Virus record (IMG/VR): IMGVR_UViG_3300042350_003801
From: a virus
Taxonomy: Duplodnaviria > Caudoviricetes
Reading direction: 5' to 3' (one strand)
Length of the DNA: 64,000 nt
Both the position numbers and the translations under genes were made by a program. Under the pieces are notes generated by a model, which ran no database searches, was not told where the DNA came from, and saw nothing but the letters and a program-made list of their open reading frames with translations. Shown here one piece after another: positions 39,346 to 59,596 of the stretch. How positions within the stretch are numbered: position 1 is the stretch's first letter; every line of letters starts with the position of its first letter.

Positions 39346-39957
39346 TCAACCGGCCACAAAACCTTCAAACATTGGCACGAAAACTGGATTATCAATACCA
39401 CCAATTAGTTCATAAGTGGCATTCCCGGCGGCATTCCTGGCGGCATTCCTGGCGGCATTCCAGGCGGCATACCCGGCGGCATTCCCGGCGGCATTCCTGG
39501 CGGCATTCCTGGCGGCATCCCTGGCGGCATTCCTGGCGGCATCCCAGGCGGCATTCCAGGCGGCATACCCGGCGGCAATCCTGGCGGCAGACATGGCGGC
39601 AGACATGGCGGCATTCCTGGCGGCATAGTCTAGGGCATCATAACGGCGGGCAACTTCATTCCATTGGTTCTCGGTAAGACCGTCCATAAACCACCAGAAG
39701 TTAATGACGGTTTCGTAGTTTGGTCCTAAAAAGTCTTGTGGATTGGTTAGGGCTTCCGGGTTTTGAAGGCCGTTGGAGAAGTTTTGATGTGCTTTGGAGT
39801 ATGCCAATCGTTTAGGAGTAAGAACATAGTTGTTGACCAAAAGATTGGATAGTTTGACCAACAATTCAACTTGTTGCTCCAATGTAAGGTTCCCAATAAT
39901 TTCATCAACAGTAATTTGAACTTCAGTGGCGGGAGCAGGAAAAATAATCGGGCTCAT
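39346..39957 (-). CDS. GPNY/NFW family member 2 with a 17-unit xxAA array
   Basis: Conserved flanks plus tandem 12-nt units at about 39418-39625. Confidence 0.8.
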
Positions 39958-40031
39958 GGGTTGTTGTTTGCAGTTGACTTTGGTAGTTTAGACTACGGGT
40001 TGGAACAGTGGCGGACCCAGTGTGCCAGTTG

Positions 40032-40727
40032 CTAGACCGTCAGGTTGTATATCATATCTCTATGTTTTGTTGTCCATTCAAGATTGGAGTATCCTCCTTG
40101 TTCATATACCCTATCACATTCAATTTCATTATTAAGATAGTTCAACCAGGCAGTGCAAAAATTCATTGCAACTTCCCTCACACATCCCGGTGAGTTATCA
40201 TTAAGTTCATAAACCAAGGAATGCCTTTCAGACAGAGGATAAGGTCTTACATACTTGTACTCGCCGCTTAACACGGTTCTCCTTGGGTTATTCTCTTCTT
40301 CTACGAGTTGTTGGTATAAACTACCAGCAGTTAGGTCTTCCGGTTTAATATCGGGGAAGACATACTTTGCAAGTTCTTGTTCGATGAACTCTTCTTTATT
40401 CCAATTACTTTTTCTTTCTTTGCCTAGTTCTTTGAGTAAATTCTCCATAGATTTTCGTGTTTCTTCCCTACGCTCGGCGCGTTGTTCAATATATTGCCTC
40501 CATACTGGCATTCTCTTCTTTATCATTTTCTCTTTATTGAATTTGGGAAACAAATGAATTGGCAGCTTATCTTCAATGTCAATGGGTGACTGAGTTACTT
40601 CATCAATATGATATCCGTTTCCAATGGTAAAGAGAATATGGTTAAGAACACTTGCTGGACTAGGGAAAATACTATGATATTCGCCCATTTGATATGAAAT
40701 AAAATTGCAGATTGATTGAATTGTCAT
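40032..40727 (-). CDS. Hypothetical protein (SIFP....L.H..F.IGNGY)
   Basis: ORF track. Confidence 0.75.
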   Translation of the reverse strand: MTIQSICNFISYQMGEYHSIFPSPASVLNHILFTIGNGYHIDEVTQSPIDIEDKLPIHLFPKFNKEKMIKKRMPVWRQYIEQRAERREETRKSMENLLKELGKERKSNWNKEEFIEQELAKYVFPDIKPEDLTAGSLYQQLVEEENNPRRTVLSGEYKYVRPYPLSERHSLVYELNDNSPGCVREVAMNFCTAWLNYLNNEIECDRVYEQGGYSNLEWTTKHRDMIYNLTV

Positions 40728-40785
40728 TGAAGGTTTGGATTTTGTTGTGGTTCTAGTGTATCACCTTAAGAGATGGCACATCTAT

Positions 40786-41184
40786 TCATTCCTTTTCAAG
40801 ATAAAAGCCATACTTGGATACTTCCTCTTGAAGGTCTGATAACCTAGAGAAAGTGGTCAAATTCCTATAGAATTCACTATTGGCAAATTCGTCAATCAAA
40901 CGAATACATTCCTCTTTAGTTTGAAAATAGCGTCTGCACACAAGAAGACCATCATCAATGTTGCTAATGGTCATTTGAACACAGTGATCATATTCGACCC
41001 ATTTATAGCCCCCATAGAAGTTGTAGCCAATCGTGAATTCTACAATTCCTGCACCATAATCGAGAAACTCAAGATGACCAGTCCTGACAATTTTTGAATA
41101 ACTATAGTCCAGGCTGGACTTATTGTAATGGTGAACCTGGCTAACTGCATCTTCGATGAGTTTGTGTAGTTCGTAAAGTTCCAT
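40786..41184 (-). CDS. Hypothetical protein
   Basis: ORF track. Confidence 0.65.
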   Translation of the reverse strand: MELYELHKLIEDAVSQVHHYNKSSLDYSYSKIVRTGHLEFLDYGAGIVEFTIGYNFYGGYKWVEYDHCVQMTISNIDDGLLVCRRYFQTKEECIRLIDEFANSEFYRNLTTFSRLSDLQEEVSKYGFYLEKE

Positions 41185-41262
41185 TTGTTTGTTGTTAAGG
41201 TGTCGGAAGTTGCTATTCTACAGGATGGGTTGGAGCGGTTGCGGGTTTATTGTGCCGGTTGT

Positions 41263-41487
41263 TTAAGTAGCACACATTTTCTCAACTGTTTCCAATTCAA
41301 TTCTTCCAGATTCAAGTTCATAAGGACTCGCAATATTCAACCATAAAATGAATTGGTCACCAGTTAAATCTGTGATAGGATTTACTTTAATAATTGAAGG
41401 GCGAATTGATTGGTAATAACTATCATACTCGAGCAATTTATCTATTTTGGCTATCCGAATTTTATCTAACAATTCAATGTCGGTCAT
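41263..41487 (-). CDS. Hypothetical protein
   Basis: ORF track; overlapping-gene operon. Confidence 0.55.
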   Translation of the reverse strand: MTDIELLDKIRIAKIDKLLEYDSYYQSIRPSIIKVNPITDLTGDQFILWLNIASPYELESGRIELETVEKMCAT

Positions 41488-41738
41488 TGGTGATTGTCCA
41501 TTTTAAGATCTAAGTGATTAATAGTCCAGTCAAGTGCTCCCTCATTGAAAGAAACTCCCGCTTCATGGAGTCTACAAAGTTCCTCTGCAGTTTCTTTATA
41601 ATAACAAGTGTTGCACCCGTAACAATCAAGCCAAAAGAAAGGGAACCACCAAGGCTTATATTGTGCAGTAAAGAACTGGCATTTGCGACCCCCATCGAGG
41701 TTAAAATAAAACCAGTAAACACGATAAGTTGTCTTCAT
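41484..41738 (-). CDS. Hypothetical protein
   Basis: ORF track; overlapping-gene operon. Confidence 0.55.
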   Translation of the reverse strand: MKTTYRVYWFYFNLDGGRKCQFFTAQYKPWWFPFFWLDCYGCNTCYYKETAEELCRLHEAGVSFNEGALDWTINHLDLKMDNHQ

Positions 41739-57445: not shown

Positions 57446-57491
57446 AGTTTCGGGAGCGAGGGGATAAGTGTTATTTAGGAGAGTCCAATTC

Positions 57492-57710
57492 TCATACTAG
57501 TTGTAAAGCGTTTTGTTGAATTTGAGAATTCACAAAGCGACCGACTGAACCACCAGTGCTAACGATTTCAGAAAGATTTGACATAAACATTTCAGCATCA
57601 GAAAGGGTGTAGGTGTAGGTTGACCCACTTTTCCAGGTAATGTCTACTTTGTTTTCAACAACATCAGAAATGCTGGTGATTGCGGTAGATTTAGTGAAGT
57701 TGTAACTCAT
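57492..57710 (-). CDS. KTSC-like domain protein
   Basis: STAI.......V.ITWKSG.TYTY......L.....SVGRFVN; start moved to MSYNF. Confidence 0.55.
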   Translation of the reverse strand: MSYNFTKSTAITSISDVVENKVDITWKSGSTYTYTLSDAEMFMSNLSEIVSTGGSVGRFVNSQIQQNALQLV

Positions 57711-57811
57711 TGGTTGTTCTCCGTTGATATGGTTATCTGGATTTCTCCATTGACCTAAGAGTAACACATTAGTTTTCTTTATGGGTGGTTTGGTGGACAG
57801 TTTAGAGACTG

Positions 57812-58222
57812 TCACAGGTATTCGAGGAATTTAACAAAGAAAAGGGGTAAATCTTTTTCCAAAAGTTCGTGCATAACCATCAACTCAAGTGTTATCCAGC
57901 TCATTAAATAACCAAATCCACGGTGTGATGAAATTTCTCGGTCTTCACAAGCAACAATAACACCATTCCATATATCGTCTTCAAATTCATATTTTTCGGT
58001 TTCAACTAATTCAGTAATGCGTTTATAACTTTGAGTTATTATTTCAAAAAAGATTTCCTCGTAGGCCGTTCCCAATATTCTCGCCTGTTCACAATTTAAT
58101 CCGTCAATGAACCACCAGAAGTTCAAGACTGTTTCGTAGTTTGAGCCAAGATACTTTTCTGGTTCTTCAATAATAACTGGGTAATTTTCAGAAATTTTAA
58201 GGTGAATGAATGAGTAGTTCAT
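57812..58222 (-). CDS. GPNY/NFW family member 8
   Basis: [22 protein letters not shown]...WITLELMVMHELLE. Confidence 0.75.
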   Translation of the reverse strand: MNYSFIHLKISENYPVIIEEPEKYLGSNYETVLNFWWFIDGLNCEQARILGTAYEEIFFEIITQSYKRITELVETEKYEFEDDIWNGVIVACEDREISSHRGFGYLMSWITLELMVMHELLEKDLPLFFVKFLEYL

Positions 58223-58689
58223 AATTTATCAAAAAGAGGAACAAACAATAAATCCTTACCATCGTCCAAAAGCGTGTGCATACCAATTAGTTCATAAGTG
58301 GCATTCCAGGCGGCATCCCCGGCGGCATCCCTGGCGGCAGCCCAGGCGGCAATCCTGGCGGCAGACATGGCGGCATTCCTGGCGGCAGCCCCGGCGGCAT
58401 CCCTGGCGGCATCCCTGGCGGCATTCCAGGCGGCAATCCTGGCGGCAGACATGGCGGCATTCCTGGCGGCAGCCCCGGCGGCAGCCCAGGCGGCATTCCT
58501 GGCGGCATCGTCTAGGGCATGATAACGGCGGGCAACTTCATTCCATTGGTTCTCGGTAAGACCATCAATAAACCACCAGAAGTTAATGACGGTTTCGTAG
58601 TTTGGTCCTAGAAAATTCTGTGGATTTGTTAGGGCTTCAGGTTTTTGAAGGCAGTTGGAGAAGTTTTGATGTGCTTTTGAGTGTTTCAC
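58219..58689 (-). CDS. GPNY/NFW family member 9 with a 17-unit xxAA array
   Basis: Conserved flanks plus tandem 12-nt units. Confidence 0.8.
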
Positions 58690-59150
58690 TTTTGCTGCTC
58701 CACTTTAAAATCATTGAAATATTCCCGTTGAATCTTATCACCAAGGACCAAACCAAATCCCCCACAAAAAAGGGCAATAATAAGAACAAAACTATATGCT
58801 CTACCGTTTTCGGGTTTTAGAAGTTCTTTAGATGTTTTTGTTGTTAGTTTTGTTGCAAACCAGGCGCTACTACTACCAAACAAAAACGTTAAAAAGTATG
58901 GTGTATAAAACACAAAGAGCCATATAAAAATTCCCAGTCCAATCAAGGTCATTGTTCCATCGGGACCATCGGTGACCGGAATTTGAATAGAATGCGACGA
59001 AACTTCACGAATGTTTCGGATTTTATCTGGAGTAACGTGATAGATATTGCAAATCTGTTCTGTTACACCATTGTAACTACTGGAGTTAATTTCTACAGTT
59101 TGCAACCCAGAATTGCTCCCGAGCCAAACATCTGCTTTGTAGTTGGCCAC
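58686..59150 (-). CDS. Membrane protein (about three hydrophobic segments)
   Basis: Hydrophobic stretches in the C-terminal half. Confidence 0.7.
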   Translation of the reverse strand: MANYKADVWLGSNSGLQTVEINSSSYNGVTEQICNIYHVTPDKIRNIREVSSHSIQIPVTDGPDGTMTLIGLGIFIWLFVFYTPYFLTFLFGSSSAWFATKLTTKTSKELLKPENGRAYSFVLIIALFCGGFGLVLGDKIQREYFNDFKVEQQK

Positions 59151-59152
59151 TG

Positions 59153-59596
59153 TTAAAAGTTAAAAAGAGGAACAAACAATAAGTCCTTACCGTCATTCAA
59201 TAGAGTATGCATACCCATTAGTTCATAAGTGGCAGCCCAGGCGGCATTCCCGGCGGCATCCCAGGCGGCATACCTGGCGGCAGACCCGGCGGCATTCCAG
59301 GCGGCATTCCTGGCGGCATTCCTGGCGGCATTCCTGGCGGCATTCCCGGCGGCATTCCAGGCGGCATTCCTGGCGGCATTCCTGGCGGCATACCCGGCGG
59401 CATCCCAGGCGGCATCGTCTAGGGCATCATAACGGCGGGCAACTTCATTCCATTGGTTCTCGGTAAGACCATCAATAACCCACCAGAAGTTAATGACGGT
59501 TTCGTAGTTTGGTCCTAGAAAATTCTGTGGATTTGTTAGGGCTTCAGGGTTTTGAAGGCGGTTGGAGAAGTTTTTATGTGCTTTTGAGTAGTTCAC
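59153..59596 (-). CDS. GPNY/NFW family member 10 with a 15-unit xxAA array
   Basis: Conserved flanks plus tandem 12-nt units. Confidence 0.8.

Follow-up and report, generated by a model that had tools for sequence, protein, structure and literature searches.

The stretch of DNA analysed here (hereafter the window; 64,000 nucleotides) is from IMG/VR virus record IMGVR_UViG_3300042350_003801 (Duplodnaviria; Caudoviricetes). Four paralogous genes on its minus strand, designated g1, g2, g3 and g4, carry tandem arrays of a 12-nt unit which is read in frame as two variable residues followed by two alanines. The arrays are probably an in-frame coding minisatellite with a 12-bp unit that replaces the helical-hairpin core of a small protein domain, undergoes concerted evolution and is under selection at a pair of residues presented as a variable binding surface. 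On the evidence of the sequences they are classified as a coding minisatellite under concerted evolution with apparent diversifying selection, the notable features being the strict two-residue alphabet and the large cyanophage paralogue family in which it is found.

Anatomy and codon usage of the arrays

The four genes and their arrays are as follows.

39346..39957, minus strand: g1, array-bearing paralogue of 203 aa, with an N-terminal extension and a C-flank from another subfamily (chimera)
39415..39630, minus strand: g1 array, a leading DYAA unit and 17 xxAA units, with a two-unit indel relative to ENA contig L014 at 39463-39486
47394..47828, minus strand: g2, array-bearing paralogue; the database version has 139 aa and starts MNYSKAH
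47481..47636, minus strand: g2 array, 12 units, with an extra super-period of 36 nt (three units)
58219..58689, minus strand: g3, array-bearing paralogue of 156 aa
58297..58512, minus strand: g3 array, 17 units, with the block GA-RN-MS-RI-W duplicated internally; a strain variant differs at unit 3 alone (GA vs RD)
59153..59596, minus strand: g4, array-bearing paralogue of 147 aa
59228..59419, minus strand: g4 array, 15 units

Period-12 arrays were detected in the window using Tandem Repeats Finder at 39418-39626, 47484-47633, 58300-58509 and 59240-59415 (scores of 181-292), and every one of these (n=4) sits inside a minus-strand open reading frame (ORF). An original prediction, made from the sequence alone, had counted 17, 12, 17 and 15 in-frame units in the four paralogues, and a codon-by-codon read-out returned the same numbers. 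The alphabet that it had proposed was also matched exactly by the 61 units read, with AGG (26), GGG (16), TGG (15) or ATG (4) as the first codon and AAT (29), GAT (10), TCT (8), TAT (6), GCT (5) or ATT (3) as the second. The third codon is GCC in 61/61 units and the fourth in 57/61, the other four being the terminal units, each of which closes with ACT; a leading D(Y/D)AA unit precedes each array. Positions 3, 6, 7-9 and 11 of the 12-nt unit are without variation in the window arrays. The commonest unit, AGGAATGCCGCC, accounts for 18/61, and in it the three main variable positions are all A while the invariant positions hold no A.

The silent positions of the arrays are homogeneous. There is no synonymous difference in the 61 units (244 array codons), compared with 0-6 per 53 flank codons for each pair of genes. 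Among 34 ORFs of the window, GCC makes up 23% of Ala codons, GGG 10% of Gly codons and AGG 18% of Arg codons, and because these are minority codons in the phage background the array codon pattern lies far beyond chance. The arrays form GC islands within a genome of 40% GC. On nine other contigs, the array Ala codons are GCC with the exception of 1/534, setting aside the terminal ACT/ACC and a few TCC/GAC replacements. Across the family, synonymous differences amount to approximately 0.2% in the arrays as against 20% of conserved flank codons, and an orthologous pair with flanks approximately 90% identical has 16 and 11 units, respectively, all with GCCGCC.

Turnover of units between strains and copies

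Slippage within the arrays and recombination between copies had both been proposed in the original prediction, and both are supported by comparison of strains and paralogues. An ENA contig from an independent assembly (L014) matches window positions 29346-49957 over 20.6 kb. It differs by one single-nucleotide polymorphism (39322) and by the 24-nt, two-unit indel in the g1 array, which is the sole indel in the 20.6 kb between the two assemblies; the g2 array is identical in both. In the database variant of g3, one whole unit is changed by two nucleotide changes and the rest of the protein is identical. Variants of other orthologues display unit indels and rearrangements, as well as the same array on other flanks and vice versa. 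Indel, replacement and rearrangement of units are all seen between close strains, as represented by short-read assemblies. Internal repeated blocks of at least three units were identified in 15 of 81 arrays, compared with 2.1±1.4 after shuffling of the unit order (approximately 7-fold), which together with the 24-nt indel supports gain, loss and duplication of units. As regards recurring blocks, the original prediction needs a correction: RN-MS-RI repeats within g3, whereas g1 has RN-MS-MS-RI.

Exchange between copies is indicated by the distribution of unit types and by the flanks. Rare units are concentrated in the paralogues of this genome, with MS at 6.4% compared with 0.1% elsewhere, WA at 7.3% compared with 0.3% and RN at 20% compared with 1.9%. 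The flanks had been described as near-identical, and this is correct for the N-flanks, which share 91.5-96% DNA identity (91.5-94% between g1 and the other copies), but not for the C-flank of g1, which is unrelated to the others past ATYELIG; as it belongs to another subfamily, g1 is a chimera. Between g3 and g4, 4.0% of sites differ in the N-flank and 17.3% in the C-flank (p=8e-4). At the informative sites, the N-flank groups the genes as (g1,g2)(g3,g4) and the C-flank as (g2,g3)(g1,g4). These discordant phylogenies have their breakpoints at the arrays and, with the g1 chimera and the genome-specific rare units, argue for recombination between copies. As judged from these comparisons of sequence, turnover of units and exchange between paralogues show what appears to be concerted evolution, with amino-acid diversity apparently held at two positions of the unit.

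The pace of these changes is a different matter. The description of the arrays as a rapidly rewritable binding code was not supported; as regards speed, several arrays are letter-identical on 3-4 independent contigs, and lake samples taken between 2020 and 2024 contain a clonal phage. Three contigs carry the g1 protein and three the g2 protein without a single letter changed, and for other paralogues the number is four or five. A unique stretch of 10,476 nt (47766-58241) is the same at every position (0 differences) in the Logan contigs from three lake-water runs dated 2020 and 2024, from which it follows that clonality of the phage population is very high. In a fourth run, a variant diverging by approximately 1.5% is present around 49107-50759. 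The arrays are thus apparently not hypervariable at population scale, and the change that is seen lies between strains and not within populations.

Metagenome contigs (L007, L009, L010-L013; IMG/VR) repeatedly stop inside or beside genes of the family, at window positions 47448/47766, 58241 and 59188/59566, and Logan contigs of four lake runs end at family genes or arrays. In short-read data of such phages, assembly breaks at the arrays and at the paralogous flanks around them.

The protein family and its genomic setting

The array genes belong to a large unannotated family of all-alpha phage proteins, most members of which have an ordinary, non-repeat core. Within the window, this unnamed family was defined by the frame motifs ..LGPNYxxVxNFW..ATxELIxMHxLL..FxPLF, with both flank motifs and a profile match required for membership. 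Six more ORFs of the window carry both flank motifs around ordinary, mutually unrelated cores, bringing the family to at least 10 members in the window by alignment, and a decayed fragment was also identified. These are as follows.

57812..58222, minus strand: non-array paralogue of 136 aa, which overlaps the g3 stop; modelled at a predicted local distance difference test (pLDDT) score of 94.3
46741..47154, minus strand: non-array paralogue of 137 aa, with the flank motifs
52149..52562, minus strand: non-array paralogue of 137 aa, with the flank motifs
52559..53038, minus strand: non-array paralogue of 159 aa, with the flank motifs
44787..45143, minus strand: short, nearly coreless paralogue of 118 aa, whose C-flank type resembles that of g1
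25255..25917, minus strand: long-core non-array paralogue of 220 aa, upstream of psbA
55940..56085, minus strand: decayed family fragment with ..SKAHQN..NP and ..ATNELIGVHT.. in different frames, within the 5' leader of a 600-aa gene (54023-55825)

The decayed fragment matches the C-flank of g2/g3 with 95.7% identity over 23 nt (blastn). A word-based search identified 508 close relatives, all annotated as hypothetical, with lengths that step by 4 aa and arrays of 4-17 units. With the non-array paralogues as seeds, an exhaustive HMMER search extended the frame family to 363 clusters, with the array absent in 142 of the top 149. The family also shows homology (hhalign 98.7%, E 2.7e-16) to larger proteins with arrays in GC-rich phages, in the C-terminal half of those proteins. 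No Pfam match was found for the non-array paralogues and 100 frame relatives, and searches of NCBIfam, PHROGs and PADLOC were likewise empty for the non-array paralogues. Using megablast and tblastn against deposited phages no family member was found; among cultured phages the closest are B3 and B23 of Synechococcus, which are without the family. Scans of the metagenome_contigs and genome_contigs collections gave no confirmed relative. Some members (P0021, P0089, P0109, P0121 and P0122) extend C-terminally past PLF with two recurring types of sequence, '..FTKEETE..PTGEIFN..' and '..FTGNYELH.LDVK.IETRIQ.INDFIGPKV..'. As these extensions recur after PLF, the frame can be fused to other modules.

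The frame itself could be modelled with confidence. The paralogue at 57812-58222 was predicted by AlphaFold2 (AF2), using an alignment of 100 sequences, as a compact all-alpha domain (pLDDT 94.3; predicted template modelling score 0.90). In this model the variable core consists of two helices (59-73 and 81-94) flanked by the conserved helices 44-56 and 101-115, and on this basis the arrays are predicted to occupy the usual place of a helical hairpin. Matches to the fold among AlphaFold database clusters were uncharacterised proteins alone (template modelling score ~0.6). No clear relative emerged from the fold searches; the best VIA-wide match, 8ows_A, is weak (Z 6.3) and is to one chain of a polymorphic-toxin/immunity complex.

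The source of the window is a lake-water cyanophage with a genome of approximately 250 kb, and the window sequence was detected in seven or more lake-water metagenome runs. The UvrD-like helicase of the phage shares 59.5% identity with its counterpart in phages B3 and B23 (Kyanoviridae). At the psbA locus (23130-25203, minus strand), the gene contains four group I introns (Rfam RF00028, 67-86 bits), and a PhotoRC-II motif (RF01717) lies ahead of it at 25116-25203. A predicted membrane protein of 154 aa is encoded between g4 and g3 (58686-59150, minus strand), its start and stop codons overlapping or almost touching the adjacent genes. What looks like one transcription unit comprises g4, this membrane protein, g3, the non-array paralogue and a 107-aa ORF. 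On related phage contigs of 243 kb (L016:19556-20489) and 28 kb, family members have an IS605 OrfB/TnpB (Cas12f-like) gene in their vicinity, which the window lacks at the equivalent position.

Explanations for the arrays and their relation to known systems

Under the explanation preferred here, the array would be a coding minisatellite put in place of the variable helical-hairpin core of a small all-alpha domain which is present in many copies per genome. Replication slippage or unequal recombination would add, remove and duplicate units and multi-unit blocks, while recombination or gene conversion among the paralogues of one genome would spread unit types and swap flanks. Such turnover would keep all of the 'silent' nucleotides identical, and selection would maintain the mixture of residues at the two positions of the unit (W/R/G and N/D/Y/S/A/I). 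Tryptophan has the single codon TGG, of which AGG or CGG (Arg) and GGG (Gly) are one-step neighbours; the codon set could accordingly reflect young units that differ through selected single steps. The product is likely to be a long helix or helical hairpin with an Ala backing, on which the residue pairs form a variable protein-binding surface, and such a display protein may be deployed against proteins of the host or of competitors at an early stage of infection.

A number of results weigh against this explanation. The strain differences were read from short-read assemblies, and repeats can be collapsed in such data. The original prediction had blocks recurring between copies, and the blocks shared by the four window arrays turned out to be no longer or more common than expected from shuffled unit orders. 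GCC-GCC is kept in every lineage of the clade despite approximately 10-20% flank divergence, which exceeds simple neutral concerted evolution. Structure prediction makes a helical context plausible, but the array protein itself was modelled poorly by AF2, as one long helix with a pLDDT of 58.8, which is too weak to use; moreover, a strict four-residue period yields no constant face on a straight alpha-helix. As regards known families, the array proteins have no match in Pfam, NCBIfam or PADLOC and their PHROGs matches are only array-driven and functionally unannotated. As regards known folds, sequence searches of the PDB found no relative of the frame family, nor did a Foldseek search of the PDB with the frame model or a search of the atlas.

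The adenines at the variable positions of the commonest unit bring to mind a diversity-generating retroelement (DGR), in which an (AGG AAT GCC GCC)n template would be copied with adenine errors by a reverse transcriptase (RT) or another enzyme and written into the arrays. Approximately 93% of the units in relatives can indeed be derived by changes at A positions alone. The remaining evidence makes such a mechanism very improbable. Using Brt and Avd of phage BPP-1 as tblastn queries, no similar ORF was found in the window and 13 related loci (~120 kb; best E 0.44), in keeping with the original description of the system as possibly RT-free. No non-coding array copy that could act as a template was found in the window, all four period-12 arrays being coding with no extra copy. 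The base spectrum fits adenine mutagenesis only in part, as CGG, although synonymous with AGG, occurs 3 times in relatives compared with 90, CAT does not occur (0) and G at position 5 is almost nil, while ATG, GTG, GAG and TAT-TTT units require changes at bases other than A. Furthermore, array lengths vary, exact multi-unit duplications include rare units, near-identical genomes differ by a unit indel with no scatter at A sites, and many sister arrays in other phages vary TGG/CGG/GGG without AGG and toggle GAC/GCC. With no RT or Avd found in the window and the related loci, no template found in the window, and sister arrays that vary C/T/G and no A, the DGR reading was rejected; adenine-centred variation of this kind could be misread as a DGR footprint. 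Directly downstream of g1 there is a DUF1566-like gene (38383-39273, minus strand); neither a second, template-like copy of its 3' end nor an RT or Avd was found in the window.

It could alternatively be proposed that the arrays are passive spacers or stalks, each forming a single stable alpha-helix of adjustable length in which variable residues are tolerated without specificity. The single long helix in the AF2 model of the array protein, the range of 4-17 units among close relatives and the possibility that R/D pairs at i and i+3/i+4 stabilise a lone helix would all fit with this. We nevertheless consider it rather unlikely, given that the variation is nearly all non-synonymous and at intermediate frequencies (synonymous variants <1.5%) and that the narrow alphabet, with W/R/G first, is conserved across unrelated phages. 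In non-array relatives, moreover, the two flanks fold together as a single compact domain, for which reason an insert, if the model holds, would have to return to its starting point. A constraint at the level of nucleic acid is less probable again. The GC-rich 12-mers would in that case function in the DNA or RNA itself (as recombination hotspots, in structure or in regulation), to which the protein repeat is secondary, and this would account for the frozen silent positions, the retention of GCCGCC across diverged lineages, the GC islands and the flank breakpoints at the arrays. The arrays are, however, always in frame within conserved ORFs, have no Rfam match, and in other phages the AA[WRG]x peptide persists with a different Ala hexamer. 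Among 51 such arrays from unrelated phages, this hexamer is uniform within an array and differs between phages (GCCGCA, GCGGCT, GCTGCG, GCAGCA); what is conserved is therefore the pattern of the peptide, and turnover accounts for the uniformity inside each array.

Arrays of the AA[WRG]x type were identified at at least 120 loci in at least four frames using a pattern scan of IMG/VR. The set of arrays had originally been regarded as new, which was an overstatement, as this type is common in phages and some examples lie in Pfam Imm5_like proteins. One of the array frames is Imm5_like (PF21805)/DUF7666, and PHROGs 8332, 18326 and 3416 are array-driven, functionally unannotated families. The window arrays resemble these AA[WRG][DA] arrays in the 12-nt in-frame unit, the two Ala codons uniform per array, the first variable codon (TGG/[AC]GG/GGG) and the location near the C-terminus followed by a short tail. 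They differ in that the second residue is mainly N/Y/S/D and not D/A, and in the many paralogues per genome. Homology of the frame to the Imm5-like array proteins was rejected (hhalign probability 0.35%, <1 in 100), and neither the four array proteins nor 100 frame relatives had a Pfam match to Imm5_like or Imm5 (PF14423).

The closest parallel is with coding minisatellites (variable-number tandem repeats) under concerted evolution, with which the arrays share nucleotide-identical units, strain-variable unit number, internal duplication of blocks and exchange between copies. Silent sites are homogenised relative to the flanks, and unit number and order are polymorphic between close strains. 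Unlike the usual repeats of this kind, two residue positions are here polymorphic at high frequency alongside frozen silent sites, and the repeats occur in a dispersed viral multigene family. With the DGR of Bordetella phage BPP-1 (Mtd/Brt/Avd), the arrays have in common variation concentrated at the adenines of the commonest unit, a location towards the 3' end of the phage gene that carries it, and purely non-synonymous change; they are unlike it in having no RT, Avd or template repeat that could be found, a biased base spectrum, unit indels and duplications, and a helical scaffold as opposed to a C-type lectin or Ig fold. As in transcription activator-like (TAL) effector arrays, nearly identical units stand in tandem, vary at two neighbouring residues and are reordered through recombination. 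A repeat code of the TAL-effector type was rejected, as the unit here is 4 aa compared with 33-35 aa (the one-nucleotide repeat being ~34 aa), and it therefore cannot be a structural repeat that reads one base. Literature searches with the motif strings and related terms found no paper on the motif.

The coding minisatellite with a selected residue pair thus remains the preferred explanation. A more far-reaching possibility, which we regard as doubtful, is that this genome encodes at least 12 paralogous helical 'display' proteins with a binding code of two residues per unit (W/R/G x N/D/Y/S), rewritten by cassette shuffling and gene conversion, and that these would constitute an RT-free analogue of the gene-conversion antigen-receptor systems, with host defence or toxin proteins as targets. 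Should the arrays be binding surfaces, they would provide a natural helical scaffold in which specificity resides in two residues of every four, and their alphabet (W, R, G, Y, S, D and N) resembles that of minimal synthetic binder libraries. If they do bind, a protein family would have been multiplied within one phage genome and diversified without a mutator enzyme, and families of this kind may represent a large unstudied layer of phage-host protein targeting.

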